NCBI GenBank assembly: GCA_023665725.1
Contig: JAMPDH010000003.1
Coordinates: 5,484-69,483, forward strand
Direction of reading: 5' to 3'
DNA length: 64,000 nucleotides
Origin: Clostridium sp.
GTDB taxonomy: Bacteria > Bacillota_I > Bacilli_A > RF39 > UBA660
Each line of letters begins with the position of its first letter. Position 1 is the stretch's first letter. Position numbers and translations under genes: made by a program. The notes beneath the pieces are model-generated. The model was not told the origin of the DNA, made no database searches, and was given only the letters and a program-made list of their open reading frames with translations. Positions 753 to 58,437 of the stretch are shown in pieces.

Positions 753-774
753 TATTAGTTTGGAGTAATAGTAG

Positions 775-3829: not shown

Positions 3830-3944
3830 AATACACCTCTTAGTTAATATTATGATATAATTTTATAAAAATATTAAAAAAATGCTATAAAAAAAAGGAA
3901 ATTTAAAAGTTTTGTCGTATATTATTAGTAGGGTGTGATATTTC

Positions 3945-37978: not shown

Positions 37979-38106
37979 CTCCTTCTAATTTTTAAATTTT
38001 ATAATTAGTATAGATAGTTTATATGTGATTTTTAAATGTTAAAATGATAAGCTCATTATTATTATGTGATAAAGTTAAAAAAAAATAAAAAATTTTTATA
38101 TATTTT

Positions 38107-38328
38107 TTATTCTTCTACATTAAAATCTTTAATTTCACCATTTTCTAATACAATTTTACTAATTTGATCTTCTACACTTTTTAATTTTTCATCACATTCT
38201 TTTATTAATTGCATAGCTTTAGTATATTTTTTTATAGAGTCATCTAAATCTGTATTTCCATTTTCTAGTTCATTAACTATTTCTTCTAATTCAGTTATCT
38301 TTTCTTCGAATTTTTTTTGTTTTTCCAT
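38107..38328 (-). CDS. xseB: Exodeoxyribonuclease VII small subunit.
   Basis: A 73-aa coiled-coil protein (FEEKITELEEIVNELENG...LDDSIKKYTKAMQLIKECDEKL) immediately downstream of xseA. Confidence 0.85.
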   Translation of the reverse strand: MEKQKKFEEKITELEEIVNELENGNTDLDDSIKKYTKAMQLIKECDEKLKSVEDQISKIVLENGEIKDFNVEE

Positions 38329-38330
38329 GT

Positions 38331-39608
38331 TTACTCCTTATCTAATACTTTAGATATAATATATCCATCATTCAATTTTATTTTTAATTTATCATCTTTA
38401 CTTACATCAGTTATACTTTTAATTAATAAATCATTTTTATATACTAATGAGTAACCCTTTTTAATTATATTTAATGGACTAACTAGTTCTAATTTATCAA
38501 TTAAATTTTTTAAAATCACTTTATTTCTTTCAAATAAAATTTCAGGTTTTTTAATTATATAATTGTTTTTTAAGTTATCCAATGTTAATCGTTTTGTAGA
38601 TATATTTATAAATATACTTTTATTTAAATTCTCAATTAATATATCTAATTTTTGTTTATAATTTTCAAACATTAACATTGGATTCTTAATCACAAATGAA
38701 TTTTTAAATGTTTCTATTTTTAGTTTTTGGTAGTTGATTTTAGTATTTATATTTTCATCTAATCTTATTTTTAATTGATTTATGTGTTTTATTAAATCGG
38801 TAATATTAGGCACTGCAAGTTCTGCAGCTCCTGTTGGAGTTGGCGCTCGTAAATCTGCGACAAAATCTGCTATCGTATAGTCAATCTCATGTCCAACTGC
38901 ACTTATAATTGGGATACTACATTCGTATATAGCACGAGCTACTTTTTCTTCATTAAAAGGCCATAAATCTTCTATAGAACCTCCACCTCTACCAACAATT
39001 AATACATCAAAATTATAATTTTCGGCAAGATGAATATTTTTAACTATATCATCTGCTGCACTTTCGCCTTGAACTAAGCTTGGAAAAAGATAAGTATCAC
39101 ATATAGGATATCTTCTTTTTATAGTAGATAAAATATCTTTTATAGCGGCTCCTGTTGGCGCTGTGATTATTCCGATTTTTTCTGGAAATAAAGGTATTCT
39201 TTTCTTTTTTTCATTATCAAATAATCCTTCTTTTTCTAACATGGCTTTCAATTTTTCAAATTCCAAATATAAATTACCTAATCCATCTTGTAGCATTTCA
39301 TCTACATATATTTGGTAATTGCCAGTTGATTCATATACACTAATTCTTCCTATTATTAAAACTTTATTTCCATCCATAGGGATAAAATTCAATTTTTTAG
39401 CATTTGTAGCAAACATAATAGCATTTATTTTGCTTGTTTCATCTTTAACTGAGAAATATAAGTGCCCTGTAGAGTGAGCTTTAAAGTTAGATATTTCTCC
39501 TTTTAAAAATACTTGTCTCAAATTATTATCATTATCTATTTTATATTTAATATAACGAGTTAGGGCAGTAACTGTTAAGTATTTACTTAAATCATTCATA
39601 TTACTCAC
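38331..39608 (-). CDS. xseA: Exodeoxyribonuclease VII large subunit.
   Basis: N-terminal OB fold (VFLKGEISNFKAHSTGHLYFSVKDE) and catalytic region (LIVGRGGGSIEDLWPFNEE, AVGHEID). Confidence 0.9.
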   Translation of the reverse strand: MSNMNDLSKYLTVTALTRYIKYKIDNDNNLRQVFLKGEISNFKAHSTGHLYFSVKDETSKINAIMFATNAKKLNFIPMDGNKVLIIGRISVYESTGNYQIYVDEMLQDGLGNLYLEFEKLKAMLEKEGLFDNEKKKRIPLFPEKIGIITAPTGAAIKDILSTIKRRYPICDTYLFPSLVQGESAADDIVKNIHLAENYNFDVLIVGRGGGSIEDLWPFNEEKVARAIYECSIPIISAVGHEIDYTIADFVADLRAPTPTGAAELAVPNITDLIKHINQLKIRLDENINTKINYQKLKIETFKNSFVIKNPMLMFENYKQKLDILIENLNKSIFINISTKRLTLDNLKNNYIIKKPEILFERNKVILKNLIDKLELVSPLNIIKKGYSLVYKNDLLIKSITDVSKDDKLKIKLNDGYIISKVLDKE

Positions 39609-40011
39609 CTATTTTTTTATGGTATATATTATCAAGCGCTGCATTTATCATGTTTTTAACTTTTTCATCACTATAAATTTTAGCAAGTTCCACTGCTTCA
39701 TTTATTGCAACTATATCCGGGGTATCTACATATACCAGTTCATATATACCCATTTTTAGTATTGCTTGATCTGTAAAACCTAATCTATCTATTGTCCAAT
39801 CTTTTAGGTTTTCATTTGCTAAAGTTTCTAACTTATCATTATAAGTTATAACACCATATACAATATCTTTTACAAAGTCATTATCTATTTCTAAAACCTT
39901 TTTAAATATATCATCTAAATTGTATTCGATTTTATTTTTATTATATATTTGTATTTGATATAATATAGTCATTATTTTAACTCTTAATTCGCTTCTAGTT
40001 AATTGCCCCAT
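39601..40011 (-). CDS. nusB: Transcription antitermination factor NusB.
   Basis: 136 aa, TRSELRVKIMTILYQ ... AINEAVELAKIYSDEK; overlaps the xseA start, which fits the nusB-xseA operon. Confidence 0.85.
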   Translation of the reverse strand: MGQLTRSELRVKIMTILYQIQIYNKNKIEYNLDDIFKKVLEIDNDFVKDIVYGVITYNDKLETLANENLKDWTIDRLGFTDQAILKMGIYELVYVDTPDIVAINEAVELAKIYSDEKVKNMINAALDNIYHKKIGE

Positions 40012-40089: not shown

Positions 40090-40112
40090 ACAAAAAAGCG
40101 ATAAAATCGCTT
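40090..40112 (-). terminator. Intrinsic terminator after the MacB-like gene.
   Basis: aagcgat-aaa-atcgctt stem with a U-run on the minus strand. Confidence 0.6.
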
Positions 40113-42663
40113 ATTCTGTTCTAAGTGCTACAACTGGATCCTTTTTACTTGCAAGTTTTGCAGGTATAAATCCAGCTATTACCGTTAATAAAACACTTAT
40201 TATAATTAAAATAATTGCCCCACCAATTGGAAGTTGCGCTAAGTTACTAATATTAACAACACTTTTAATTATCATATTTGCAGGTATTATTATAATAATA
40301 GTAACTAAAATTCCAAATACTCCAGCAATTAGGCCTTCAATTAATGTTTCAGCATTAAATACTCTAGAAATATCTTTTTTACTAGCGCCTATTGCTCTTA
40401 AAATTCCTATTTCTTTAGTTCTTTCAATTACTGAAATATAAGTAATAATTGCTATCATTATAGAAGATACTATTAAGCTTATTGCAACAAATGCAATTAA
40501 TACAGCACTTATTACATCTACAATAGTTGAAACAGAACTCATCATTATACCAACTAAATCTGTATAATTAATCTTTTCTTCTTCTGATTTGTCTTTATTA
40601 TATCCTTCAATTATTTTAACTATTTCATCCTTAGAATCAAAATCCTTAGGGTAAAGTGATATAGTACTTGGTTCTTCTAAAGAAACAATTCCTAATTTAA
40701 TTAAATTATCTTCATAGGTAGCTGACATATTTTCTTTATAGGAATTTATAAATTCAGTTAATTCTACTTGTGATAAACCTTGAATATACATAAGTTGTTC
40801 TTTTGAAAGATTATTCATATCAAATGTATTATTATCAGAAAATTCTAATCCAGTAAATACATTTATATCTTTATTTTCTAATTGTTTTTTGGCTATTTCT
40901 GAACTATTAATTTCATTAATTAAATATTCAACTAAATCATGTCTATATCCAACCATTCCCGCACTACTTGTTCCAACAACCGCTTCTTCGTTTGGCTTCA
41001 TAATACCTACAATTTCTATTTCTAAAGCATCTTCTAATTTTTCTTTTATATATTCTTTATCATCACTCATATCAACCCATATATTATTTTGTTTTTTATA
41101 ATAATCTGTATTTAATAAAAGTTTAAACTTCATTCCTATCAAATCTTTTGTATCATATGAGTTTTCAGTAAAACTAACATCTTTACCATTAATCATATTA
41201 GAAAATTGTTTCTTTAAATCATCTTGACTAAGTATTCCTAAACTATATAATGTATAATCTGTAATTTGATTGTTTTTATCTACTTGTAATATTACTTCAT
41301 TATATTTTTCAGGCCATCTTCCATCTACCAAATCAAATTGTTGTTTATTAAGTTCTTGATTATCTAATAATTCATAGAATACATCATAATTACTCATCAT
41401 TGTCCCATATGCAGATGAAATTCCTGAAGTATTTATTCCAAGAGCATCAAATATTGTAGTTGGATTTACTCTTACAATATCTTCGCTATTTTTATAAAGA
41501 TTTAATGTAACATCATAAGAATATTGAATATTTGAAGTATAATCTTTTATATTTGTTTTATCACTTTCTATATATTCTTTAAATGATTTTAAATCATTTT
41601 TTTGCATTTTTTGTGTCATTGTTGTAAACATATCACCCATTATATTTACTGCATGGATTTTATTATCATTATATTCTTTGTCCTCATTATTCGATGCAAG
41701 TGTTGTGATAAAAGATGCCATATCAATTGATTCTTTTTGTATAGTTAAAGGATAGGAACTTAAAGTTTCTTCTTCTGTTTTATTAATATATTTTTGTATA
41801 CCATTTGAAAGTGATAAAATAAGTGCGATACCAATTATTCCTATACTTCCTGCAAAAGCTGTAAGAATAGTTCTGCCTTTTTTTGTTAATAAATTATTTA
41901 GACTTAATGATAAAGCTGTCAAATAATTCATAGAAGTTTTTTTACTTTTTTTAGATTTTTCCTCTTTTTTTTCTTCTTTTTCACCCTTATATGGATTTGA
42001 ATCATCTACTATTTTACCATCTAATAATTTTATTATTCTAGTAGAATAAGTATTAGCTAGTTCTGGATTATGAGTTACCATAATAACTAATTTTTCTTTA
42101 GCAATTTCTTTTAATAAATCCATTATTTGAACACTTGTTTCTGAATCAAGTGCTCCTGTTGGTTCATCTGCAAGTAAAATATCAGGATCATTTACTAAAG
42201 CACGCGCTATTGCTATTCTTTGCATTTGTCCACCAGACATTTGGTTAGGTTTTTTATTTATGTGTTTTTCTAGCCCGACTTTTTTTAATACCGCTATACT
42301 TCTTTTTCTTCTTTCTTCTTTATCTATACCAGATAAGGTTAAAGCAAGTTCTACATTTTGTAAAGCGGTTTGATGTGGTATTAAGTTGTAACTTTGAAAA
42401 ACAAATCCTACTCTATGATTTCTATATGTGTCCCATGCACGATCATTATATTTTTTAGTAGATATTCCATTAATAACTAAATCACCTGTTGTATACTTAT
42501 CAAGACCTCCTATTATATTTAAAAGTGTAGTTTTTCCAGAACCACTTTGTCCTAAAATTGAAACAAATTCACTTTTTCTAAAACTTACGCTTATATCATT
42601 TAAAGCATTCTGTTTTAACCCAGCAACTTCATATATTTTAGTTATTTTTTTTAGTTCTAACAT
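40111..42663 (-). CDS. Fused ABC transporter: ATP-binding domain plus MacB/FtsX-type permease with a large extracytoplasmic domain.
   Basis: GGAGG RBS before the ATG at 42663. Walker A GQSGSGKTT, signature LSGGQMQRIAIARAL and Walker B ILLADEPTGALD. Four TM segments. The C-terminal FtsX region is RAIGASKKDI. Confidence 0.8.
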   Translation of the reverse strand: MLELKKITKIYEVAGLKQNALNDISVSFRKSEFVSILGQSGSGKTTLLNIIGGLDKYTTGDLVINGISTKKYNDRAWDTYRNHRVGFVFQSYNLIPHQTALQNVELALTLSGIDKEERRKRSIAVLKKVGLEKHINKKPNQMSGGQMQRIAIARALVNDPDILLADEPTGALDSETSVQIMDLLKEIAKEKLVIMVTHNPELANTYSTRIIKLLDGKIVDDSNPYKGEKEEKKEEKSKKSKKTSMNYLTALSLSLNNLLTKKGRTILTAFAGSIGIIGIALILSLSNGIQKYINKTEEETLSSYPLTIQKESIDMASFITTLASNNEDKEYNDNKIHAVNIMGDMFTTMTQKMQKNDLKSFKEYIESDKTNIKDYTSNIQYSYDVTLNLYKNSEDIVRVNPTTIFDALGINTSGISSAYGTMMSNYDVFYELLDNQELNKQQFDLVDGRWPEKYNEVILQVDKNNQITDYTLYSLGILSQDDLKKQFSNMINGKDVSFTENSYDTKDLIGMKFKLLLNTDYYKKQNNIWVDMSDDKEYIKEKLEDALEIEIVGIMKPNEEAVVGTSSAGMVGYRHDLVEYLINEINSSEIAKKQLENKDINVFTGLEFSDNNTFDMNNLSKEQLMYIQGLSQVELTEFINSYKENMSATYEDNLIKLGIVSLEEPSTISLYPKDFDSKDEIVKIIEGYNKDKSEEEKINYTDLVGIMMSSVSTIVDVISAVLIAFVAISLIVSSIMIAIITYISVIERTKEIGILRAIGASKKDISRVFNAETLIEGLIAGVFGILVTIIIIIPANMIIKSVVNISNLAQLPIGGAIILIIISVLLTVIAGFIPAKLASKKDPVVALRTE

Positions 42664-42802
42664 TATTTCCTCCTTATAAATTAAGATAATGTAATTAGTA
42701 TACCATTTAAGAATATTTTTAGTCAATGTCATTAATTACAATTTAAGTTGAAAAATTTGTGAAATTTATTATATTTAAAATAAAAAGATATAAATTTTCA
42801 TA

Positions 42803-44410
42803 TCAATTTTTTATATCTCTCTTTTTATATATAATATTAGTTATTATAATTATTATAATAGTAAATATTATTGAAGTTATTATTGAAGTCATTAAATCCA
42901 AATTACAATATATATCTTTATTAATAAATAAATTATACATAGGGTTATTTAATATATAATTGCTATAATTTATAAATGTTAATGGAATATAATTAAATAC
43001 TTTACTTATCGGATCAATTGCAATAACTGGCAAAAATGTTGAGAGTAAAACTATTATTAAAGTGATTCCTGAAGTAAGCGCAACATTTAAGGATATACTT
43101 GATATAAAAAATAGTATTGCAAGAACAAATATTATAAATATAAAATGTATTCCCATATTTTTTATTACAAATAATAAATAATTAGTGGTTGTAATACTTC
43201 CTTCTTCTATTATAAGTTGTGGTATAGATAAACTATCTCCATTACCTGTTATAAACATAATTACAATAAATATTAATAATGAAATTATATATAAAATTAA
43301 TGCATTTAGTATTATATAAATAAATTTAGATAGTAATACTTTACCTCTTTTAAATGGGTTTGATAAAACCAATCTAATACTTCCTGTATTATGTTCCTTA
43401 GCAACTATCCCACTAAATAATACTATACATATTATAACTACTACTATACCCGTATAATAAATATTATTAAAACAAATTCTAATATCATATTCATTATGAA
43501 AACTTGCAAAAGAAGAAGAATCTACGAGTGGTCTTATATTATTTTCTAAGCACTCTTTATATAATAAATATTCTTGTTTTCTATCTTTAAAAGTCCCTAA
43601 TAAATAACTATTTACCAAGTCTTCATAATTATTATACTGTGAATAATGTTCTCTACTATTATTAAATTCTTCTAAAGTTGGAATTGGAAATAGTAGGTTA
43701 GATACTAATCTTTCACTATTTAAAACTACAATATACTGCCAGTTATTGGTAGTAACTTTATTATCTATAATATATTGTGATAAATAAATTTTTTGTTCAA
43801 AATAATATTTTTTATTTTCTAAATTATAATCCTTTTCTTTAGTATTTTCTAATAATTTATTTATATTATTTAATTCACTTTTATACTGTTTTAAATAAAA
43901 TTCTTCTATCTCATAAACATTACCACTTATTATTACTTCTAATATTTTATCATATTGCTCTTTTAATATTTGATATTCTCTCTTTATATTATCTAAATCA
44001 TTAGTTTCCCTATAACCATCTATAATTAGTTCATGTTCTACTAATTCATTAATTATATTTTTTGCTTTATCGTATAAATCTCCCATGTTTGATTTATCAC
44101 TAGTATAGTTATTATCATACATTAATTTATCAAGTTCTATTTGTTTTTGTTTTTTTATTAAATTAATATAAACTTCTTCTGTATTAGATTCTTTTAGTAA
44201 ATCTTTATACTTATTATAAAGTATTTCGTCTTCTTCAATACTTTCTTTTGTTATATGCCATTCGTGTTTTGACATTGAATTAAATGTTAGTTCTGGTAAT
44301 TTAAATATAACTATGGAACTTATGATTAAAATAGATAAAGTTATAATAATATTTTTTAAGTTTGTATTTTTAATAAATTCTGTTTTTAATAATCTTAAAA
44401 ATTCTTTCAT
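42803..44410 (-). CDS. ABC-2-type transporter permease (1 N-terminal TM, a roughly 300-aa extracytoplasmic domain, 5 C-terminal TM). Paralog 2.
   Basis: GGAGGA RBS. Near-identical N-terminus (MKEFLRLLKTEFIKNT) and C-terminal TM block to 44431..45987. It lies downstream of the ABC ATPase. Confidence 0.6.
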   Translation of the reverse strand: MKEFLRLLKTEFIKNTNLKNIIITLSILIISSIVIFKLPELTFNSMSKHEWHITKESIEEDEILYNKYKDLLKESNTEEVYINLIKKQKQIELDKLMYDNNYTSDKSNMGDLYDKAKNIINELVEHELIIDGYRETNDLDNIKREYQILKEQYDKILEVIISGNVYEIEEFYLKQYKSELNNINKLLENTKEKDYNLENKKYYFEQKIYLSQYIIDNKVTTNNWQYIVVLNSERLVSNLLFPIPTLEEFNNSREHYSQYNNYEDLVNSYLLGTFKDRKQEYLLYKECLENNIRPLVDSSSFASFHNEYDIRICFNNIYYTGIVVVIICIVLFSGIVAKEHNTGSIRLVLSNPFKRGKVLLSKFIYIILNALILYIISLLIFIVIMFITGNGDSLSIPQLIIEEGSITTTNYLLFVIKNMGIHFIFIIFVLAILFFISSISLNVALTSGITLIIVLLSTFLPVIAIDPISKVFNYIPLTFINYSNYILNNPMYNLFINKDIYCNLDLMTSIITSIIFTIIIIIITNIIYKKRDIKN

Positions 44411-44430
44411 TATCTTCCTCCATAACTATA

Positions 44431-45987
44431 TTAATTTTTAATATCTCTCTTATAGATTAAATTATTTAATATAAATAAAACTACTATAAATATGATAGAA
44501 ATAACTATAGAAATATTTATATCTAAATCAGAATATATATTTATTATACCTTCATCATTTGATAAGTTTGTAAGTTTATATAAAGGGCTACTGGATAGAT
44601 AAGATGCATAATTAATATATGTAAATGGAATAAAATTAAATATATACATTAAAGTTTGCTTAATTAAAATAGGTAAAAATGAAAATACTATTGTTGTAAT
44701 TAAAGAGATTGAAACAGTAAAACCTGTATTTAATGAAACTGTAGATATGAAAAATAAAAGTGTTAGGATAAGTGTTATAAATATAAAATGTATACCCATA
44801 TTTTTAATTATAAATAATAAATAATTAGTTTGTGTTACATTACTTTCTTCTATTATAAGCTGTGGTATTGATAAGCTATCTCCATTACCTGTTATAAACA
44901 TTATTGCTAAAAATATTAATAATGAAATTATATATAATATTAATGCATTTAGTATTATATAAACAAATTTAGAAAGTAATACTTTACTTCTTTTAAATGG
45001 GTTTGCTAAAAGTAATCTAATACTTCCTGTATTATGTTCTTTAGCAACCACTCCGCTAAATAATATTGTACATATTATAATTACTATTATACCCATATAA
45101 TAAATATTACTAAAACCAATTCTAATATCATATTTATTATAATATTCATCTTTTATAATTGGTTTTATATCTTGTTTTAATATATTTTTATATAATTCTA
45201 TTTTAGATTTTTCTATATTAATATGTTTTAATTTATCATCAACATATTCCTCATAACTATCATAATTAATATATTCTAATCTTTGTTCATTAAAAGTATC
45301 TTCATTAACAAAGTAATTATTATAATTTAAAATAACTAATAAACTTGTCTTATAATGATAAATTATATAATTTTTCCAATTATCTTCTAAAGTGATTTTA
45401 TTATCAATTATATAATTTGATAATTTAATATTTTCTTCATAATAGTATTTATTTATTTTATCTTGAATACTATCTCCTAAAGTACTTAATTCTTTTTTAT
45501 AATTCTTTATATTAAACTCTTCTAATTTAGTAAGATCTTTAGTCATTAAAGTATCAACTAAAATATCATATTCTTGATTTAATTCTTTACAATCATTATT
45601 TTCTTTTTCGCAAAGTACGAATTGTTCTGTTAAATTATTTATATTGCTATATATATTTCTACTTAAAAAACCTTCTACTTTAACATTATTACTATATAAA
45701 GTTTCTTCTAATTTTAAATTTTTTTCTTTTATTTTTAATTCTAATTCTGTTTCATAATTTTGATTTTCATTAAAATTATTTAATGCATTTTCATATTCCT
45801 GTTTTTTTAAATCAACTGATAAAGTATCTATATTTATATTTAGACTATCACTTGTAGGATTTACTGTTTTTGATATTTTAAATATAATTAAACTTGATAA
45901 AATAAGTGTTATAAGGGTTACTATAACTCTTTTTATAGTGGTATTTTTAATAAATTCTATTTTTATTAGCCTTAAAAACTCTTTCAT
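44431..45987 (-). CDS. ABC-2-type transporter permease, paralog 1.
   Basis: Same architecture as 42803..44410. The conserved block AKEHNTGSIRLLLANPFKRSKVLLSKF is present. Confidence 0.6.
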   Translation of the reverse strand: MKEFLRLIKIEFIKNTTIKRVIVTLITLILSSLIIFKISKTVNPTSDSLNINIDTLSVDLKKQEYENALNNFNENQNYETELELKIKEKNLKLEETLYSNNVKVEGFLSRNIYSNINNLTEQFVLCEKENNDCKELNQEYDILVDTLMTKDLTKLEEFNIKNYKKELSTLGDSIQDKINKYYYEENIKLSNYIIDNKITLEDNWKNYIIYHYKTSLLVILNYNNYFVNEDTFNEQRLEYINYDSYEEYVDDKLKHINIEKSKIELYKNILKQDIKPIIKDEYYNKYDIRIGFSNIYYMGIIVIIICTILFSGVVAKEHNTGSIRLLLANPFKRSKVLLSKFVYIILNALILYIISLLIFLAIMFITGNGDSLSIPQLIIEESNVTQTNYLLFIIKNMGIHFIFITLILTLLFFISTVSLNTGFTVSISLITTIVFSFLPILIKQTLMYIFNFIPFTYINYASYLSSSPLYKLTNLSNDEGIINIYSDLDINISIVISIIFIVVLFILNNLIYKRDIKN

Positions 45988-45989
45988 AA

Positions 45990-46715
45990 CTATCTTATTT
46001 GTCCCTTACTATTTTCGAGCATACTTATAAATTTATCTTCTAATGAAATATTTTCATTTTCAAGTTCATTCTTAGTAATTTCACATAACAAATTACCATC
46101 ATTTAACATTATAAATTTATCACATATTTTTTCTATTTCAGATAATATATGACTTGAAATAATTATAGTCATACCACTTTCTTTAAGTTCTAAAATTAAT
46201 TCTCTAAGTTCTCTTATTCCAATTGGATCTAGTCCATTAGTAGGTTCATCTAAAATAAGTATTTTTGGTTTATTTATTAATGCTTGTATTATTCCAAGTC
46301 TTTGTCTCATCCCAAGAGAATAGGTTTTAATCTTATCATCTATTCTATTTTTTAATTTTAATTTTTTTACTAATTCATCCTTATATTCTTTATCATCAAC
46401 ATTTTTAATTAAAGAATAAATTTTTAAATTTTTACTTCCAGATAAATCCATATACATATCAGGATTTTCTATTATACATCCAATATTTTTTATTGCTTCA
46501 TTATGTTCGTATCTTATAGATTTACCACATATTTTAATATCGCCTAGTGTTATACTATAAAGACCTAACATTGTTTTTATTAATGTACTTTTACCTGCTC
46601 CATTTGGACCAACTATTCCTACGATTTCTCCTTCATTTATACAAAAAGAAAGATTATTTAAAATAATCTTCTTTTTGATTACTTTAGTTAAATTATTTAC
46701 TTCAAGTACTTTCAT
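45990..46715 (-). CDS. ABC transporter ATP-binding protein.
   Basis: Walker A GPNGAGKST, signature LGMRQRLGIIQAL and Walker B ILILDEPTNGLD. Confidence 0.85.
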   Translation of the reverse strand: MKVLEVNNLTKVIKKKIILNNLSFCINEGEIVGIVGPNGAGKSTLIKTMLGLYSITLGDIKICGKSIRYEHNEAIKNIGCIIENPDMYMDLSGSKNLKIYSLIKNVDDKEYKDELVKKLKLKNRIDDKIKTYSLGMRQRLGIIQALINKPKILILDEPTNGLDPIGIRELRELILELKESGMTIIISSHILSEIEKICDKFIMLNDGNLLCEITKNELENENISLEDKFISMLENSKGQIR

Positions 46716-46726
46716 AATACCACTTC

Positions 46727-47263
46727 CTAATTTTCCAAACTATATCCACCGTATAATCTTGCATTATTACCTAAAAGTGCTCCATTATATGCCTTTATAC
46801 CAACATAATTTACACTTGAATTTACAACACAGTAATCCGCACTTGAATATCCACTTTTAACATCACAAACTACACAAACTGTAGCATCATCTCTACAAGG
46901 TGCATTTTTAGCTCTAAAATCTATTATCATAGGTATTGATTTTAAACTTATTGTTTTGGTTGCAAGAGTAACCTCAGATACACTTGATGTAAAACCTGCA
47001 ATCGCACTTAAATCAACTGTATCACCAGTAGTTCCTGGTTCAAGTCTAACTCTAATATATTTATAATTTCCATTTTGTCTTGCTGCTAAAATAGAATTTG
47101 AACTAAATGTTTTAATTGTCCAATCAAAATTATAACGAGTTGCACGTGGAGAAATAGTATTATCATTTAAAGTTAAATTAGATGTTTCCATAGCTTTTGC
47201 ATCATTAGTTCCTAGTAGTAAAAAACATATTGCAAATAAAAATATAGATAAATTTTTTTTCAT
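46727..47263 (-). CDS. Secreted Cys-containing protein of unknown function. First gene of the ABC operon.
   Basis: GAGAGG RBS. Sec signal peptide MKKNLSIFLFAICFLLLGTNDAKA. The mature protein is about 155 aa and has CRDD...CVVCDV...YCVV cysteines. Confidence 0.5.
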   Translation of the reverse strand: MKKNLSIFLFAICFLLLGTNDAKAMETSNLTLNDNTISPRATRYNFDWTIKTFSSNSILAARQNGNYKYIRVRLEPGTTGDTVDLSAIAGFTSSVSEVTLATKTISLKSIPMIIDFRAKNAPCRDDATVCVVCDVKSGYSSADYCVVNSSVNYVGIKAYNGALLGNNARLYGGYSLEN

Positions 47264-47415
47264 TTTTTCATTTCCTCTCATTCAATTAAAATATTAAAAA
47301 CTTACTACACTTCAACATACTACATAAAAACTTACTACAAATTTATTATTTAATTATATACCACCCCAATTCTAAATAAATCATAGGATGAGTACTGCTA
47401 ACATCTTCTAGGCTA

Positions 47416-47444
47416 ATTATATCAACTTGTAGTTAACTTGTCAA
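47416..47444 (-). promoter_or_regulatory. Consensus sigma-A promoter (TTGACA, 17 nt, TATAAT) driving the secreted-protein / ABC operon.
   Basis: Minus-strand reading gives TTGACAagttaactacaagttgaTATAAT, with exact consensus hexamers and 17-nt spacing. Confidence 0.65.
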
Positions 47445-47448
47445 TAAC

Positions 47449-47475
47449 AAAAAAACTAAGTTTTTAATAACTTAG
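47449..47475 (-). terminator. Intrinsic terminator after the OapA-like gene.
   Basis: cuaaguu-auuaaa-aacuuag followed by UUUUUUU on the minus strand. Confidence 0.6.
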
Positions 47476-47486
47476 CTAGCAATAAA

Positions 47487-48029
47487 CTATTTATTTTTTA
47501 CTTTATAAAAACAAGAAATAACTTTAGCAAAAACATATGTAATATCATTACTTTTTTTAATAGCAATTTCTTTTCCGATAGCTTTACCACCAATAGTTAA
47601 AGATGCAATTATTCCTGTTACAACTAAATTTATATATAATAAATTAATATTTAAAATATTAGATAAACTAGTTGCAATAACAATACCAGCAGAACCTGAT
47701 ATAATTCCACAAATATCTCCTACAACATCATTACAAAAAGATGATACTTTTGCAGCATTTTTCTTTAAAATAACAGCCACTGTAGCGCCTTTAACTTTTC
47801 TTGAATTCATAGAATGAATTGGTTTTTCATCACTTGCAGTAATAGCAACTCCTATCATATCAAAAATTACACCTAGTAAAATAAAGACTATTAAAATTAT
47901 AATCCCTATTATAACTCCTGTACTAGATAAAACTAGATCTGAAATAAAAGAAAAGGCAACTGATATAACAAAAGCTAAAAATATTATTTTTATTATCCAT
48001 ACAGTATTATTATTTTTCTTTTTTGCCAT
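47487..48029 (-). CDS. oapA: Small 4-TM membrane protein with a DxxxD motif. Candidate OapA (OLE-associated protein A).
   Basis: AGAGGTGGAG RBS. 180 aa (about 20 kDa) with four predicted TM helices and DVVGD in TM3. It lies immediately downstream of the 620-nt structured RNA. Confidence 0.45.
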   Translation of the reverse strand: MAKKKNNNTVWIIKIIFLAFVISVAFSFISDLVLSSTGVIIGIIILIVFILLGVIFDMIGVAITASDEKPIHSMNSRKVKGATVAVILKKNAAKVSSFCNDVVGDICGIISGSAGIVIATSLSNILNINLLYINLVVTGIIASLTIGGKAIGKEIAIKKSNDITYVFAKVISCFYKVKNK

Positions 48030-48054
48030 ACTCCACCTCTTAAATTTAAAAAAT

Positions 48055-48675
48055 AAAAAGGGTAATCCCTTTTATAAACTTCATTTGTTTGGCTATTAAT
48101 ATAGTTAACTTTACGCCTTAGGTCGAGTCGGATTTCCCCTATTCCTACAAGATGTTACCATACTTGCGGTTCCCCTTTAAAGGAATAGATATATAGTCAC
48201 CTATTATATTACTCGATTGCCACTTAGTACGTACTGCAATCCCATATTAATCTCACTCTAGGAGATTTCCTCCCCAACGATTTATTATTAATTCTTTTTT
48301 GCAGATATAATTTCAAAATGCGATTTTCAAATAATTCTAGCTATAAACTATTTAAAATTGTTCATTTATCCCAAATATCCACTCAAGACAAGCTACACTA
48401 TCCATAACTTGCGCCACAAGATAGGTTCAAGCCTAAGTCGTAATAAATCATATCAACTTTATAAGTTTAAGTATGTTTACCACAAGATTAGGTCTCCATG
48501 AGAAATGGGTCATTTAACGTATGCCATTACGTGTGCCCATAGCTCTACCTTTCAGCACCCACCCCAAACTGGGCGTAAGAAGCAAGCACCAAAAGTTTCA
48601 CAGATATGCTCTTTAACGGATTTTTAGCCCCGTCTTCCTAATAAATCAATTGACTAGAATAATGTGCCAATCAAT
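48055..48675 (-). ncRNA. ole: Large (about 620 nt) structured noncoding RNA. Candidate OLE (ornate large extremophilic) RNA.
   Basis: About 47% GC against a roughly 25% background. There is no ORF of 60 aa or more on either strand. A consensus promoter lies upstream and an intrinsic terminator (aaaggg-auua-cccuuu plus a U-run, 48054..48075) downstream. Many local hairpins are visible, for example ACGUA-AUGGCA-UACGU. RNase P and tmRNA signature motifs are not found. The size and the downstream 4-TM DxxxD protein fit ole-oapA. Confidence 0.5.
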
Positions 48676-48681
48676 AATTTC

Positions 48682-48710
48682 ATTATAGCATATTTACACT
48701 TTAATGTCAA
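48682..48710 (-). promoter_or_regulatory. Consensus sigma-A promoter (TTGACA, 17 nt, TATAAT) for the structured RNA.
   Basis: Minus-strand reading gives TTGACAttaaagtgtaaatatgcTATAAT, with a predicted TSS near 48675. Confidence 0.65.
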
Positions 48711-48778
48711 ATTTGCTAAAAAAATAAATAAAACTATTTACTTTTACTATATTATATGCTTACGTTATTTTTATATAA

Positions 48779-49174
48779 TTATTTTAATTTTAAGTTTAAC
48801 ATCTTTCTTAATTGTTCTACATTATCAAATTTTGTATCCTTACAAGCAGTATGTAATTTTTTTATCATTACTGCTAAACTTATAACTACTACTAAAAAAG
48901 ATAATATTATAAGTCCTGCGCCAAAAGCTTTAATATCTACACTCATTAAATATATTCCAAATAATAATAATATAAATCCTATTAATACTATAGTTATAAT
49001 AGTTGTTTTATCTTTAGAATTATTTTCTAAATAAGTTATTTTTTGTTTTAAATACTCTATTTGTTCTTGTTTTGAAATATTCATTTCTTCCATAGAATCT
49101 ATAATATTATTATATACTATTTCATTTTTATTTTTTTCTGTTCCATTTATATTTACCTTTAAATCCATAACCAT
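48779..49174 (-). CDS. Hypothetical protein: N-terminal coiled coil plus two C-terminal TM segments.
   Basis: 131-aa ORF. No family motif. Confidence 0.4.
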   Translation of the reverse strand: MVMDLKVNINGTEKNKNEIVYNNIIDSMEEMNISKQEQIEYLKQKITYLENNSKDKTTIITIVLIGFILLLFGIYLMSVDIKAFGAGLIILSFLVVVISLAVMIKKLHTACKDTKFDNVEQLRKMLNLKLK

Positions 49175-49303
49175 TACCCTCCATAATAAGTATATAATAA
49201 AATGATATATGAAATCAAGAAAAAAATATATCTTTTAGCAAATATATTTATTAGATAAAAATCAATGGCTAATTTGCAATAAACTGAAAATTAGCCATAA
49301 TAT

Positions 49304-49690
49304 TTAATTAATATATTTTTCTGCATCCCCTAGATATAATCTATAAAGCATATCAATTTTTATATATATAAGCATTATAAATGCAAATATCCAACCTAGT
49401 ATAGGAATAATAATACATAAAATCCAAGTATATGGAGATAAATATAATTCTTTTCCTGCAACATTTAGTTTAGATGCGCTTTTACAAAGTATTTCAACAT
49501 AGAAAGCTGAAATCATAGCGATAAAAGGAAGAATAAATACTAATCCTAAAACCCAATAATACCATTTTCTATACCAAGCATTACTTCTATATGTATCAAG
49601 TAGTGCACCTAATACAAAAGTATCACTTCCTGATGAAAAAAGCATAAGAAGTAACCAAATCCACCAATTTTCACGTTTTAATATTTTCAT
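49304..49690 (-). CDS. Hypothetical small membrane protein (3-4 TM), downstream of mutS.
   Basis: 128-aa ORF, Trp/Tyr-rich and hydrophobic. It follows mutS 9 nt later. Confidence 0.45.
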   Translation of the reverse strand: MKILKRENWWIWLLLMLFSSGSDTFVLGALLDTYRSNAWYRKWYYWVLGLVFILPFIAMISAFYVEILCKSASKLNVAGKELYLSPYTWILCIIIPILGWIFAFIMLIYIKIDMLYRLYLGDAEKYIN

Positions 49691-49698
49691 ATATCCTC

Positions 49699-52233
49699 CT
49701 ATTTTAATTTTTCTTTTAATTCATAAAGTATATTTAAAGCTTCAAGCGGTGTTATAGATAAAGGGTTAATTTCCTTTATACGCTTTTCTACTATGCTTTC
49801 CTCTTTTACTAATTCTTCTATTGGTAAAGCTTCTTGTACTTTAATATCTCTTTTATATTCAGTATTTTCATATACTTTAAGTATAGCGTCGGCCCTTTTA
49901 ATTACTATTTCTGGAAGATGTGCGAGCTTAGCAACATGTATACCATAACTTTTATCAACACTACCCATCTTTACTTTATGTAAAAATGTAATATTACCAT
50001 TTTCTTCATGCGCACTTACATGTACATTTTTAAGGTTAGTTAATGTATTTTCTAAATCAGTAAGTTCATGGTAATGGGTAGAAAAAAGTGTTTTTGCCTT
50101 TATATTATTATGAATATATTCTATTATAGATTGAGCAAGTGCCATACCATCAAATGTTGCAGTTCCACGTCCTAATTCATCAAACAATATTAAACTTTTA
50201 CTTGTAGCATTACTTATAGCATTATTTGCTTCTATCATTTCGACCATAAATGTAGATTCACCACTAACTAAATCATCACTTGCACCAATTCGTGTATATA
50301 TTGCATCAAATATAGGTACTTTTGCAACTTTAGCTGGAACAAAACATCCTATTTGAGCCATAATAGATATTATAGCCATTTGTCTCATATAAGTTGATTT
50401 ACCAGCCATATTAGGCCCTGTTATTAATAATATGTTTGTATTTTCATCCATTATTACATTATTTTCTACATATTCATTATTTTCTAGTACTTTTTCTACT
50501 ACAGGATGCCTTCCATCTATTATATTTATTTCATTATCTGTAATAATAGGTCTTATATAATTATTCTCTTCAGTTATAGTTGCAAAAGATTGCAATACAT
50601 CTATTTCACTTATTACTTTTGATACCTTTTGAAGTGTTGGAATATATTCTTTAACTTTATCTTTTATAATATTAAATATTTCATACTCAAGCTCTACTAT
50701 TTTTTCTTCTGCATTAAGTATCAAATCTTCTTTTTCTTTTAGTATTGGACTTATATACCTTTCACAATTACTAAGGGTTTGTCTTCTTTCATAACCATAT
50801 TCTTCTTTAATTAAATCTACATTCCCCTTACTAATTTCTATGTAATAACCAAATACTCTATTATATCCAACCTTTAAATTTTTTATACCTGTTCTTTCTT
50901 TTTCTTCTGCCTCAAAACGTGCAACAAAGTCTTTACCTCCTTTTCTTAAAGCTTTGAGTTCATCTAATTCACTATTATAACCATCTTTAATAAGATATCC
51001 TTCTTTTACAGTAACAGGTGGATTTTCATATATACTTTTATCTAATAATTCATATAAATCTTCTAAGGAATTAAAACTTTTATCAAAATTAATTTTTTCT
51101 AATATTTCTTTTATAGTAGGTAATACTTTTAATGAATTTTTAAGTTGTAACAAATCTCTTGCATTTGCAGAACCAAATGCAATTCTTCCTGATAATCTTT
51201 CCAGATCATATACCTCAAACAAACACTCTTGTAAATCGCTTTTTAAAATAAATTCTTTTAAAAGTATTTCTACAAAGTCATATCTTCTATTTATTTCATT
51301 TATATCTATTAATGGATTTTCTATAAAATTCTTTAACATTCTAGAACCCATTGCAGTTTTAGTTTTATCTAGCAACCATATAAGGGAATAATTTCTTTGT
51401 TTTAATCTTAATGTTTCTGTTAACTCAAGATTTCTTTTAGTATGAACATCCATTTTCATATAGTTTTGTTTTTCTTTTATAACTGCCTTTTGTAAATGAG
51501 ATAGATTTCTTTTTTGAGTATTTGTAATATATGTAAGTAAATGTCTAATAGTTTCAATATATCTTACATCATTTATATCTTCGTAAATATATTTATATTC
51601 ATCTGATGTAATTTCATTAAATACAGTAGTTGTTATTTTAAACTGTCTTTCTAGCATAGAGGTTATTTCTATATCTACTTTATCAGTAACTATTATCTCT
51701 TTAATTCCTAAGTTTACTATTTCACTTACTAATAATGTATTATTATGTTCAGTTAAAAACACATTGACTTCTCCAGTTGATATATCTATATAACTAACTC
51801 CATAGGCGTGATTAAAATCAATTACTGAACCTATATAGTTGTTCTCATATTCAACTAAAGATTCATTATCCATTACAGTTCCCTTACTTATTATTTGAAT
51901 TAAATCTCTTTTAACGATTCCTTTAGCTGTTTTAGGATCTTCTAATTGTTCACAAATACCAACTTTGTATCCCTTTTCTACTAATTTATCTATATATATT
52001 TTAGCAGCATGATATGGTATTCCACACATTGGTATTTTTTCATTTAATCCTGCATTTTTACCTGTTAAAGTAAGTTCTAGTTCTCGAGAAATATTTATAG
52101 CATCTTCAAAAAACATTTCATAAAAATCACCTAATCTAAAAAATATTATAACATTAGGATTTTCTTTTTTTACCTCTATATATTGTTTTATTCCAGGAGA
52201 TACCTTATTTATATCTACATCTTTAAGTAACAT
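49699..52233 (-). CDS. mutS: DNA mismatch repair protein MutS.
   Basis: N-terminal mismatch-binding FFRLGDFYEMFFEDA. Walker A GPNMAGKSTYMRQ. The DE...TH motif and HTH C-terminus. 844 aa. Confidence 0.9.
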   Translation of the reverse strand: MLLKDVDINKVSPGIKQYIEVKKENPNVIIFFRLGDFYEMFFEDAINISRELELTLTGKNAGLNEKIPMCGIPYHAAKIYIDKLVEKGYKVGICEQLEDPKTAKGIVKRDLIQIISKGTVMDNESLVEYENNYIGSVIDFNHAYGVSYIDISTGEVNVFLTEHNNTLLVSEIVNLGIKEIIVTDKVDIEITSMLERQFKITTTVFNEITSDEYKYIYEDINDVRYIETIRHLLTYITNTQKRNLSHLQKAVIKEKQNYMKMDVHTKRNLELTETLRLKQRNYSLIWLLDKTKTAMGSRMLKNFIENPLIDINEINRRYDFVEILLKEFILKSDLQECLFEVYDLERLSGRIAFGSANARDLLQLKNSLKVLPTIKEILEKINFDKSFNSLEDLYELLDKSIYENPPVTVKEGYLIKDGYNSELDELKALRKGGKDFVARFEAEEKERTGIKNLKVGYNRVFGYYIEISKGNVDLIKEEYGYERRQTLSNCERYISPILKEKEDLILNAEEKIVELEYEIFNIIKDKVKEYIPTLQKVSKVISEIDVLQSFATITEENNYIRPIITDNEINIIDGRHPVVEKVLENNEYVENNVIMDENTNILLITGPNMAGKSTYMRQMAIISIMAQIGCFVPAKVAKVPIFDAIYTRIGASDDLVSGESTFMVEMIEANNAISNATSKSLILFDELGRGTATFDGMALAQSIIEYIHNNIKAKTLFSTHYHELTDLENTLTNLKNVHVSAHEENGNITFLHKVKMGSVDKSYGIHVAKLAHLPEIVIKRADAILKVYENTEYKRDIKVQEALPIEELVKEESIVEKRIKEINPLSITPLEALNILYELKEKLK

Positions 52234-52340: not shown

Positions 52341-54167
52341 CTAAATAGTTTTATTTATATTAGTTTCTTCAACATAGCTAATAAGATTTGGATTAGCATA
52401 AATAATTACTTCTTCCTTAGAAAAATTTGTATAACACTCATTTTTAAAACGTTCTTTACTATAGTCTAACATTGTCTTCTTTTCTTTTAATAACAACTCA
52501 CTTCTTTTATACTTTTTATTAAAACAATAAAGTAAAAATTTATTTATATATTCTAGGGTATCATTAATATTATATTTAGAATATCCTTTACATTCTTTAA
52601 AATTAGAAACATCATTTAAAAAATCTAAATTTAAAACAAATCTATATATATTATCAAAATCCATATATTCGCTTAAACACTCTACTAATCCAGATATATT
52701 TTTACTTAAATATAAACTTTCTAACTTCTTTTTACCGATTAACTCTTCAAGTTCATTTACTATATATAAAGAATTTTTATCATTACTTTTTTCAAAATAT
52801 CTTTTAGTAAGAATTTTAGAATAAAAATCATTAAAGCCTCTACCAAATTCTTGTATATTTAATTTTTTATTTATAATCTCCTTGCTATCATCAGTACCTA
52901 TCATACTTAAAAGAGTACTATAAATTTGTGAATAATCTAAAGGGAAATATTCTTTTACATATAAATTTGGATTAATTGAAATTCTTTTTATATTTTGATA
53001 AAAGGTATTCAAATTAATATCTGGATACTTATTTGAAATAAATAGTTCTATATTAGAAATGGCATTTTTAATATTTAAGGAAACTGATTTAATAGTATCC
53101 GTTCTTTCATTTAAATATAAATTATCAAGATTATTAATTATATCATTAGTTAAAATGTGAATATACTTAACTACATTTTCTTGTTTTGCAATTTCGCTTT
53201 TCCTAAACTGTTTTGGTGCATTATATATCATTCCATTTATTACTTTATTTTCAAATTTTCTAATATGTTTTATTGCTTCTTTTAAATCATAATTATATAT
53301 CATTTTTTTAGAATAACAAATTATTAAAAATTCACTTATTCTTTTTATAGAAGAACACATATTTTCATTTGTAGTATTTTCTCCATTATATTGAACACGA
53401 TATACAAAATCCATGTCATTTATAAAATTATAAATTTGATCGGATGATACATACTTTTGAAGTTCAGAAATTAATCCATATAAATTACCTTTTGCATATA
53501 AACTTTCCATTTGGTTTCTACCAACAACTTTTTCTATAATTTCCGCAACATATACTTGATATTTGTAACCAACTTTATCCCATTCACCTTTATTATTATC
53601 AAAATATCTTTGTGTTAAAAACTGTGTATAGCCCTCATCTATACCATACCCTATTGCATTTTCATGACCGTTTTCTTCACTATATTGCATAAAACCAAAA
53701 TATCCAATATTTTCACCGATATGAGTAGAAAGTAAATGAAACAATTCATGATAAATTGAATATTTATTATGAATTATTTCTATAGTATTTTTTTCTACTT
53801 TATAGTGCCCTAAAGTATCATATGATTTTTTTCTTTTAAAATAGTCAAAAAATCCAGTATTATTATTAATTTTAACCTCATTTATATTATTATAAAAATT
53901 AGTTAAATCATTATCATTAAAATTTTTTTTAATAGTATTTGTAAAATTAACAATTAATTTTCCAAGTTCCATTTTTAATAATCTTTGCATATCTACATTG
54001 TCATATTTTCTGGCAACAAATTCTGGAAGTTGAACCTTACACCTTATTTGTTTTCTAACTAATTTTCCACTTTTTATAGAATTAGCATTAAAATAATTTG
54101 TTACTACACTTGTATTTTCTAAATTATCTATTTTTTCTAATGTACTTAAAAGATTTGCTTGTTCCAT
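52341..54167 (-). CDS. Hypothetical 608-aa protein with an internal duplication. The first copy carries an HExxH (HELFH) motif.
   Basis: No signal peptide. Two homologous halves (GYGIDEGYTQFLTQRYF...ESLYAKGNLYGLISEL and RGFNDFYSKILTKRYF...ESLYLSKNISGLVECL). Only the first half has IYHELFHLL. Confidence 0.45.
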   Translation of the reverse strand: MEQANLLSTLEKIDNLENTSVVTNYFNANSIKSGKLVRKQIRCKVQLPEFVARKYDNVDMQRLLKMELGKLIVNFTNTIKKNFNDNDLTNFYNNINEVKINNNTGFFDYFKRKKSYDTLGHYKVEKNTIEIIHNKYSIYHELFHLLSTHIGENIGYFGFMQYSEENGHENAIGYGIDEGYTQFLTQRYFDNNKGEWDKVGYKYQVYVAEIIEKVVGRNQMESLYAKGNLYGLISELQKYVSSDQIYNFINDMDFVYRVQYNGENTTNENMCSSIKRISEFLIICYSKKMIYNYDLKEAIKHIRKFENKVINGMIYNAPKQFRKSEIAKQENVVKYIHILTNDIINNLDNLYLNERTDTIKSVSLNIKNAISNIELFISNKYPDINLNTFYQNIKRISINPNLYVKEYFPLDYSQIYSTLLSMIGTDDSKEIINKKLNIQEFGRGFNDFYSKILTKRYFEKSNDKNSLYIVNELEELIGKKKLESLYLSKNISGLVECLSEYMDFDNIYRFVLNLDFLNDVSNFKECKGYSKYNINDTLEYINKFLLYCFNKKYKRSELLLKEKKTMLDYSKERFKNECYTNFSKEEVIIYANPNLISYVEETNINKTI

Positions 54168-56550: not shown

Positions 56551-56928
56551 TTATTTTGAATTTTCATTTAAAGAACATGAATCTTTTTCATCAAGTTCAT
56601 AGGTATATCCATTATTATATTTAATTTTAACAACTTTATCATTTATACTTTTACCATCATAACTTATATTAGAAATAAGTAGATTTTCATTTATTAAATC
56701 TTGTATCCCAATACAATATGTAGATCCATTAGTTATGTCGAAATCATTTTCATATTTAGTCATATATTCTTTTGTGGCTGTTTCTATTAATCGCATAGAA
56801 GCATCATTTACTTCATTATTACTATTATTTATTATATTTATAATAACATTAACAGATAAAGTAATAATAAGCGCAAGTAAAATAACCACACTAATTAATT
56901 CTATCAAAGTAAACCCATTTTTCTTCAT
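56551..56928 (-). CDS. Type IV pilin / ComGC-like major pilin with a canonical class III signal peptide.
   Basis: AGGGTGA RBS. The leader MKKNG|FTLIELISVVILLALI has G-1, F+1 and E+5. Roughly 120 aa, with a C-terminal Cys pair (YCIGIQ...DSCSL). Confidence 0.75.
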   Translation of the reverse strand: MKKNGFTLIELISVVILLALIITLSVNVIINIINNSNNEVNDASMRLIETATKEYMTKYENDFDITNGSTYCIGIQDLINENLLISNISYDGKSINDKVVKIKYNNGYTYELDEKDSCSLNENSK

Positions 56929-56933
56929 ATTAA

Positions 56934-57479
56934 TCACCCTATCATTATATCCGCTATAGCATTTCTAACATTAGAAAATGTATCAAATATGTAATAAAAG
57001 AAATCTTTAATTACATTAGTTTTGGAATTTTTATTATCTATATATAAAATAAAATCATTACCGAATTTTTCAACTCTTATATCATTTGTGTAACGTTTAT
57101 ATTTTTTTATTAAATCTTCTAAATCTATATTATTTGTATTTCCATATAAATAAATCATATCTTTATTTATATAAATACTACTACTTAGAAATGATTTAAA
57201 AAATTTTTTAATTTCAAAAATATTACATATAATAAAATCCACTCTTTTTTTCTTAAAAAATTTTTTTAAAGATTTAATTTTTATTAATTTAGATTTTGTG
57301 GTTTCAGTACTATCATGATACATTTTTTTAGATTTCCCTGATTTATAGTTAGTTAATGAATTACATATTAATATTTTTTCATTATCGTTAACTAAATCAT
57401 AAATAATCGGTTCATTTACACCAATTAATAGTACATTCCCACTTAAACATTTTGTAATTTTTATTAAATTTTCTTCCAT
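56934..57479 (-). CDS. Hypothetical protein (181 aa) between tcdA and the pilin gene.
   Basis: An ORF overlapping the downstream pilin start. No family motif. Confidence 0.4.
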   Translation of the reverse strand: MEENLIKITKCLSGNVLLIGVNEPIIYDLVNDNEKILICNSLTNYKSGKSKKMYHDSTETTKSKLIKIKSLKKFFKKKRVDFIICNIFEIKKFFKSFLSSSIYINKDMIYLYGNTNNIDLEDLIKKYKRYTNDIRVEKFGNDFILYIDNKNSKTNVIKDFFYYIFDTFSNVRNAIADIMIG

Positions 57480-58164: not shown

Positions 58165-58437
58165 TTATATTCACCATATAAAGTATAGCATAATCAAAAA
58201 AAATAGGCAATAAAAAAACCTAAAGAATTAGATATTCAAACGACAAACCCGGTCTTCCAGGTGGGCATCACATTACAAATTTTAGGATTCCCTTAAAGGG
58301 CATTCAACACCACTTGTAAATTAGATTCCCAATCGTTTTATTTGTAGGTTTTTCTTTTAGAATACTAATATCTTTAGGTATTTATATTATACCATCATTT
58401 TTAAAATAAATCCATTTTTTTATAAAAAATTAATATT

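Follow-up and report, generated by a model that had tools for sequence, protein, structure and literature searches.

A full-length OLE RNA gene and the adjoining oapA gene in an AT-rich, uncultured Clostridium sp.

On the minus strand of the 64-kb stretch of DNA analysed here (the window), a long region poor in open reading frames precedes the gene of a 180-aa membrane protein. The question raised by this locus is which RNA the region encodes and whether the neighbouring protein is its partner. A sequence-only reading had proposed OLE RNA followed by OapA, and had kept as a fallback an unannotated structured RNA of unknown class. Among the conserved bacterial RNAs that still lack an assigned biochemical function, OLE is one of the largest. 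Full-length examples have been studied in Halalkalibacterium halodurans, Clostridium acetobutylicum and C. botulinum, and published surveys report thousands of OLE RNAs, gut MAG lineages included (PMC11332333).

Identity of the RNA and its occurrence in related loci

The whole window was scanned with cmscan against all 4227 Rfam families at their gathering thresholds, and positions 47200-49400 were rescanned at E <= 1. The OLE family (RF01071) matched the minus strand at 48073-48686 with 387.2 bits, for a gathering score of 50, and E = 3.1e-110. The match runs over model positions 1-616 of 616 and is not truncated. No Rfam family besides OLE was found in the region, either at the gathering thresholds or, over 47200-49400, at E <= 1. 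The OLE RNA gene is thus placed by the RF01071 match at 48073..48686 (minus strand), with a likely transcript of ~630 nt running from ~48675 to ~48046. By the definitions of Fernando & Breaker 2024 (PMC11332333), this RNA is full-length OLE; OLE is the identity that had been put forward.

RNase P, tmRNA, ROOL, GOLLD and raiA RNAs, whose models had been named as a check, are excluded, as is an intron or rRNA fragment, OLE being the sole Rfam match even at E <= 1. That the region encodes a different structured RNA, or a new class which only resembles OLE, is a reading to which we give practically no credence: OLE stands alone among the 4227 Rfam families, its model is covered from position 1 to position 616, and nothing was found in favour of the alternative. 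Because the OLE model and the covariation, OapA and linkage checks described below all favour OLE/OapA, the fallback of a large structured RNA belonging to no known class is excluded. Since the standard Rfam model detects the RNA at once and the surveys report thousands of such RNAs, no new question is opened by its presence: the OLE/OapA pair of the window is an already known, ordinary member of a described family.

The segment 48055-48675 has a GC content of 35.4%, vs 24.0% for the 64-kb window, and the ole region is the window's GC maximum at the 614-nt scale. The figure of ~47% given for this segment by the sequence-only reading is not borne out, the GC-richest 241-nt stretch of ole (48400-48640) reaching only 41%. 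On neither strand does 48030-48663 contain an ORF of 50 aa or more, the longest being of 47 aa, in line with the earlier remark that no ORF reaches 60 aa in the region; a 73-aa GTG ORF of the plus strand (48664-48885) merely clips the extreme 5' end of ole. The ole sequence also folds more stably than its dinucleotide shuffles, with an MFE z of -3.66.

The host belongs to the Bacillota, as expected for OLE: its record carries the label MAG Clostridium sp., and a SpoIVB equivalog is encoded nearby. As a separate observation, this host is an AT-rich, uncultured gut-type MAG and not an extremophile.

Relatives were collected as the best 80 genome loci encoding homologs of the 180-aa protein, fetched via protein alignment. 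Searching these loci by nhmmer with the window RNA, an OLE homolog was detected in 73 of the best 80, upstream of the protein gene and in the same orientation. Fourteen of the nhmmer-positive loci were tested with the Rfam OLE model and all 14 were confirmed, with 374-558 bits. In most of the 73 related loci oapA comes directly after ole, and an extra gene stands between them in six relatives (L021, L028, L029, L040, L062 and L070). Six close oapA loci (L002, L003, L008, L025, L038 and L041) showed no OLE within 3 kb by nhmmer, and no OLE remnant at E <= 0.01, and protein-coding genes abut oapA in them; ole loss or relocation therefore occurs in the lineage.

Secondary structure and putative protein-binding sites

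In the window copy, 141 of the 154 Rfam consensus pairs with both partners present are Watson-Crick or G-U. Departures from the consensus are minor: the copy lacks the small Rfam hairpin of model positions 424-436, and 17 nt are inserted in one terminal loop. Apart from this one small variable hairpin, all the Rfam consensus helices are kept. The window RNA and 68 near-full-length relatives (69 loci in all, from 23% to 67% GC) were aligned with MAFFT, and covariation was scored on the projected Rfam structure together with the closing helix P1. Across the 69 loci 87.7% of the cells are paired, vs 37-46% when the partner columns are slid by 1-3. Compensatory double changes were found in 128 of the 159 pairs, and none of 500 column shuffles reached any of the observed pairing measures. 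Homologous loci thus display the covariation on which the proposal of an OLE RNA had been made to depend.

The same 69-sequence alignment shows that hairpin 424-436 is absent throughout the low-GC clade and found only in GC-rich relatives; the 17-nt insertion varies within the clade, as does the 424-436 region. Because the whole low-GC clade is without this hairpin, we regard its absence as a clade trait and not as decay. The invariant columns of the alignment correspond to the conserved OLE blocks UAUUCUAGU, the GCCCA loop, AAUGGCAU, GUGUAGC, CCUAG and ACUAAGUGG, all of which are found in the window copy.

These data bear on the idea that the RNA is a decaying, non-functional OLE relic, left in a reduced genome which is losing the system. 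The six oapA loci without OLE within 3 kb, as well as the hairpin missing from the window copy, could be taken as signs of such a decay. However, that hairpin is missing throughout the low-GC clade, 92% of the consensus pairs are intact, every invariant block is present, the promoter described below is a perfect consensus, and oapA is intact with its invariant residues kept. We consider a relic very improbable and retain the reading of a full-length OLE RNA. Among the relatives, an internal hairpin is missing in L032, L044 and L080, and others have a shortened stem.

Three helices bring distant parts of the RNA together. The closing helix P1 pairs UUGGC (48666..48670) with GCCAA (48089..48093); the pairing was read from the sequence and is part of the MFE fold. 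It is 88% paired across the 69 loci, with a compensatory change in 3 of its 5 pairs. Two long-range helices belong to the MFE fold and not to the Rfam structure line. The first one pairs UAUUCUAG (48654..48661) with CUAGAGUG (48254-48261) and holds the palindrome CUAG; it is 95.5% paired, and one of its pairs changes from U-A to C-G in 18 loci. This helix is probably P2 of the published model, near the mapped OapA-binding palindrome (PMC12265935). The second one, of 13 bp, pairs 48639..48652 with 48275-48287 and was obtained from the MFE fold and from covariation. Compensatory changes were found in 13 of its 13 pairs, and it is 73% paired, vs 38-48% with the partner column slid. It probably corresponds to the P3/P3.1 stem, proposed by Breaker 2025 to span the membrane (PMC12265935). 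The 3' strands of both helices, comprised in 48254..48287, flank a small conserved hairpin, GAG-GAAAU-CUC (48262-48272), which is 100% paired across the alignment. The labels P2, P3 and P4a are drawn from descriptions given in other papers.

The hairpin at 48549..48595, of 20 bp and with an invariant GCCCA loop (48570-48574), is the one that Lyon et al. 2022 number P5/P5.1. It is 91% paired in the 69 loci, with compensatory change in 12 pairs. In H. halodurans the flanks of the GCCCA hairpin form the k-turn of OapC (PMC9723947). The flanks found here, AUCUGUGAA on the 5' side and GGUAGAG, would correspond to this published k-turn region. The 5' flank AUCUGUGAA is conserved and near the consensus AUCGAUGAA, and a C-G pair can be drawn beside a 3-nt bulge; on the 3' side, the clade of the window has one nucleotide less than the Rfam consensus.

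Similarly, OapB requires a GNRA loop and a one-nucleotide bulge in P13 (PMC7936274). Both features are present in the hairpin at 48189..48209 (minus strand), which is capped by the tetraloop GUGA (48197-48200) and has one A bulged out at the bulge position of the model; this hairpin is the equivalent of P13, described as the primary OapB-binding site. A second GNRA hairpin, at 48147..48167 with a GUAA loop, is the equivalent of P14.1, described as a weak secondary OapB site (PMC7936274). As for the corresponding proteins, tblastn with the published sequences gave no match to OapC (ybxF) or bS21 (rpsU) in the 64-kb window, a result which says nothing about the remaining genome. No KOW-type OapB was seen by eye among the 10 un-nested small ORFs of the 64-kb window, which is too small a set for this to be meaningful.

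Taken as a whole, the window copy matches the full-length OLE class from end to end and shares its helices except one hairpin, its closing and long-range helices, its conserved blocks and its two tetraloop hairpins (GUGA and GUAA); as in that class, a promoter is proximal and oapA follows immediately downstream. It differs by very AT-rich helices (35% GC overall), the absence of hairpin 424-436 and the 17-nt loop insertion, and by its host, an uncultured 24% GC MAG rather than an extremophile. Reduced OLE variants 1 and 2, from gut TANB77 and RF39 (PMC11332333), likewise come from uncultured low-GC MAG hosts. Unlike them, the window RNA is not reduced, and keeps the stems which they shorten or lack as well as the P13 GNRA site. 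Among the closest relatives of OapA, many are encoded in MAGs that carry the label Bacilli, Mollicutes or Tenericutes.

The OapA protein

The gene following ole (47487..48029, minus strand) encodes a protein of 180 aa with four hydrophobic helices, at approximately residues 10-33, 37-64, 98-120 and 125-148. Between helices 2 and 3 lies a presumed cytoplasmic loop, K69-K94, with the basic residues K69, R77, K78, K80, K89, K90 and K94. The DxxxD motif is DVVGD at 101-105, and its two aspartates, D101 and D105, do not vary among 51 homologs. Aligned over 173 residues, the protein shares 40% identity (E = 3e-32) with the OapA that Kretsch et al. 2025 give in their supplement (PMC12286853), a sequence which was machine-read from the PDF and may contain small errors. 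OapA is described as lacking a conserved proline that is characteristic of CNNM domains. The sole proline of the window protein is P70, in EKPIHS; in the alignment it faces a proline of the published OapA, in EKPFHA.

No useful match was found in NCBIfam, and since a search of the PDB by sequence gave no match, the structure was compared by fold. With a pLDDT of 82.7, the AlphaFold2 model consists of helices throughout, and in the fold search it resembles the transmembrane domain of the CNNM/CorB/CorC transporters. The similarity to Pfam CNNM is sub-threshold (E = 5.6e-4, 20.1 bits for a cut-off of 28.4), and neither a CBS nor a CorC_HlyC domain was detected with Pfam. The traits published for OapA are four helices, a CNNM-like fold with 7M1U as top match, a DxxxD motif and no soluble domains (PMC11332333). 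Like OapA, the window protein combines four helices, the invariant DxxxD, the basic loop, a predicted CNNM-like fold and the absence of soluble domains with a position after ole. It differs from OapA relatives by a shorter N-terminus, being of 180 aa vs 190-207 aa.

Compared with MpfA, CorB and CorC, the window protein has no CBS or CorC_HlyC domain, scores below the CNNM cut-off and is only 180 aa long. It also carries DxxxD, a motif absent from CNNM domains, and OapA has four membrane helices vs three in these proteins (PMC11332333). OapA resembles the MpfA/CorB/CorC (CNNM) family, yet is not a member of it.

The 180-aa protein is OapA, a small four-helix membrane protein. The prediction made for this gene was correct, on the grounds of the four helices, DVVGD, the CNNM-like fold, the identity to published OapA and the linkage to OLE. 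It is almost certain that the locus encodes the core of an OLE ribonucleoprotein, made of OLE RNA and OapA. An NCBI entry with the identical sequence, annotated as a hypothetical protein, comes from a MAG labelled Clostridium sp. (contig JAMPBU010000003.1, GCA_023666545.1). The window thus adds a further full-length OLE from an uncultured, very AT-rich non-extremophile, along with an OapA annotated merely as hypothetical. Its copy helps annotation and supplies AT-rich sequences for covariation analysis.

Transcription unit, proposed function and gene neighbourhood

A consensus scan identified a sigma-70-type ole promoter at 48682..48710 (minus strand), with the -35 box TTGACA at 48710-48705 and the -10 box TATAAT at 48687-48682. 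It has 12 of 12 hexamer matches, a 17-nt spacer and a TG extension, in agreement with the perfect TTGACA-17-TATAAT read beforehand. In 45 of the 69 OLE loci, window included, a near-consensus promoter is found at this same spacing, 46-56 nt before the conserved TATTCTAGT block. In B. halodurans, expression of OLE is increased over 100-fold by a proximal promoter (PMC3413148). We take the ole promoter as real because its position is conserved in relatives and because the proximal promoter is active in B. halodurans. From the spacing, transcription of ole is predicted to start near 48675. The Rfam match starts 11 nt before this predicted start because the model includes a poorly conserved flank.

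On the other side, an intrinsic terminator occupies 48046..48073 (minus strand). Its hairpin (48073..48056) has the stem AAAAGGG / CCCUUUU and the loop AUUA, then UAUUUUUUAA. With 7 pairs, of which 3 are G-C, ahead of TATTTTTT, this hairpin is the sole site reported by the terminator scan in 47000-49200, vs 0.3 in shuffles, and the GC hairpin with a U-run that had been noticed there is thus recovered. Applying a strict perfect-stem rule, a comparable hairpin and T-run was found after OLE in 23 of the 69 loci, window included.

The oapA gene has its own ribosome-binding site, AGAGGUGGAG, read from the sequence at 48031..48040 (minus strand). From the terminator T-run to the oapA ATG the distance is ~16 nt, and from the end of the Rfam match to the oapA start it is 43 nt. 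No promoter-like site was reported by the consensus scan between the terminator stem and this ATG. Given the ribosome-binding site, the ~16 nt past the T-run and the lack of an intervening promoter-like site, oapA is most likely translated from read-through transcripts. Just past the oapA stop, an AT-rich terminator-like hairpin can be seen by eye at 47449..47475 (minus strand; CUAAGUU / AACUUAG, 6-nt loop, U7). It falls below the terminator-scan criteria because it has only 2 G-C pairs, and is the probable end of the ole-oapA unit. The leader that follows a second promoter (47282-47410) folds no more stably than shuffled controls (z = 0.28) and has no Rfam match.

The transcription layout bears on a further alternative, in which the 180-aa protein would be a generic CNNM/CorC-type Mg2+ transporter and the RNA its cis-regulatory leader. 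The weak similarity to Pfam CNNM and the CorB/CorC-like fold are compatible with it, and oapA, without a promoter of its own, must share the ole transcript. However, the protein has no CBS or CorC_HlyC domain, stays below the Pfam CNNM cut-off and carries the DxxxD motif missing from CNNM domains. Moreover, a terminator stands between the RNA and oapA, the two genes are split by another gene in the six relatives listed above, and the OLE of the model species is a stable, abundant RNA which acts in trans (PMC3413148). We judge such a leader highly unlikely and keep to OLE RNA with OapA as its protein.

In the OLE/OapA reading, as drawn from the layout of the locus, an OLE RNA of ~630 nt would be produced from its own strong sigma-70-type promoter and would mostly end at the intrinsic terminator. 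Translation of oapA would most likely proceed from transcripts reading through this terminator, a supply which would keep OapA much scarcer than OLE RNA. It is a tentative and rather doubtful proposal that, in this AT-rich gut lineage, ole forms a self-contained unit before a promoter-less oapA, with read-through fixing a high RNA to protein ratio. Separately, sister lineages keep an intact OapA, DxxxD included, without OLE within 3 kb. What is mildly new here is the promoter-terminator-oapA layout, which would imply read-through control, and the six oapA loci without OLE within 3 kb. If ole were truly absent from those sister genomes, they would offer natural examples of an OapA that functions in the absence of OLE RNA.

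In H. halodurans, OapA dimers bind OLE RNA and anchor it at the membrane (PMC12265935, PMC11332333, PMC9723947, PMC7936274). There, OLE dimerises and recruits OapB at the GNRA hairpin and OapC at the k-turn (PMC7936274, PMC9723947), and it helps the cell to cope with cold, short-chain alcohols, excess Mg2+ and poor carbon sources (PMC12265935). According to a recent proposal, a dimer of OLE to which OapA is bound would span the membrane (PMC12265935), and published hypotheses on the activity of the OLE complex include the control of divalent-cation transport through OapA. By analogy, the OLE RNA of the window would be expected to dimerise and to be held at the membrane by OapA dimers, an expectation which the clostridial cryo-EM work on OLE (PMC12286853) underlies together with PMC12265935. 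Its particle may also recruit more proteins and aid under cold, alcohol, Mg2+ or carbon-source stress; the stress roles are extrapolated from distant model species because the host is a gut-type AT-rich MAG and not an extremophile.

On the minus strand of the window, the gene order is mutS, 2 small ORFs, ole, oapA, an unannotated 178-184-aa ORF, 4 ABC-transporter genes, nusB, xseA, xseB and spoIVB. The mutS gene (49699-52233) is upstream of ole, the two small ORFs between them being unannotated. No useful NCBIfam match was obtained for four unannotated neighbouring proteins. The nusB (39601-40011), xseA (38331-39608) and xseB (38107-38328) genes are on the same strand as ole and 7.5-9.4 kb downstream of it, in line with the ~8 kb first estimated.

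This block had also been said to be a usual neighbour of ole. The expectation of synteny rests on the locus comparison made here, none of the papers searched mentioning both OLE RNA and xseA. The comparison bears it out, with the block located upstream of ole in the relatives which have it nearby: it lies ~8 kb downstream in the window instead of directly upstream. Compared with these relatives, the window has the order of ole-oapA and nusB-xseA-xseB swapped, with the transporter cassette between them; no functional consequence of this swap was seen. The order in relative L042 is mutS, nusB, xseA, xseB, ole, oapA and spoIVB. Similarly, xseA is located at most ~2.3 kb upstream of ole in eight further loci, four of which also have xseB.

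Gene order around ole and oapA

The block running from mutS to spoIVB was found to be rearranged when the window (36983-40011, minus strand) was compared with L042 (positions 1-4573), one of the 80 best-matching genome loci encoding relatives of the window OapA. The L042 order is mutS, nusB, xseA, xseB, ole, oapA and spoIVB, whereas in the window a pair of small ORFs comes after mutS, followed by ole and oapA, then by a cluster of five genes (one unannotated ORF and four ABC-transporter genes), and finally by nusB, xseA, xseB and spoIVB. The window SpoIVB scores above the NCBIfam equivalog cut-off (324.9 versus 305 bits).

The five-gene cluster fills the interval between oapA and nusB (40111-47281, minus strand). 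Besides the unannotated ORF of 178-184 aa, it encodes an ABC ATPase, two ABC-2 permeases that each exceed 500 aa, and an 873-aa protein in which an ABC ATPase is fused to an FtsX permease. The unannotated ORF, the 518-aa ABC-2 permease and the common ATPase were compared with the 80 related loci. Because neither the unannotated ORF nor the 518-aa permease has a counterpart adjoining ole in any of them, the comparison suggests that the cluster is a lineage-specific insertion.

Directly 3' of the probable oapA terminator lies a second promoter (47416-47444, minus strand), with a perfect TTGACA-17-TATAAT consensus and a TG extension. Its leader of about 150 nt showed no unusual structure (z = 0.28) and gave no match in an Rfam search. 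Within this leader, three 10-nt direct repeats, TGTAGTA(A/T)GT, recur with a 15-nt period (47300-47339, minus strand), immediately 5' of the unannotated ORF and then the ABC-transporter cluster. The repeats resemble a regulator binding site.

oapA loci and neighbouring OLE RNA

An intact oapA retaining the DxxxD motif was found at about positions 2900-3540 in each of L002, L003, L008, L025, L038 and L041 (6 of the 80 best-matching OapA loci), the encoded proteins being 52-64% identical to the window OapA. No OLE RNA was found by Rfam search (E <= 0.01) within 3 kb on either side of these genes, which are directly flanked by protein-coding genes. In these genomes, either ole has been relocated elsewhere or OapA has been retained without it.

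Other genes and RNAs of the window

Three minus-strand ORFs upstream of ole, of 608 aa (52341-54167), 128 aa (49304-49690) and 131 aa (48779-49174), gave no significant match in Pfam or NCBIfam; the sole family signal of the 131-aa ORF was a sub-threshold DUF2207_C match. The two shorter ones look like membrane proteins, and a tblastn comparison with all 80 related loci retrieved no match to either. Another 128-aa ORF (56551-56937, minus strand), whose N-terminus MINMKKNGFTLIELI carries a type IV pilin/pseudopilin-like motif, is a possible competence or pilus gene. The minus strand also encodes a 6S RNA (58213-58383; Rfam RF00013, 63.2 bits, full model) and a tRNA (61329-61402; RF00005, 59.5 bits).
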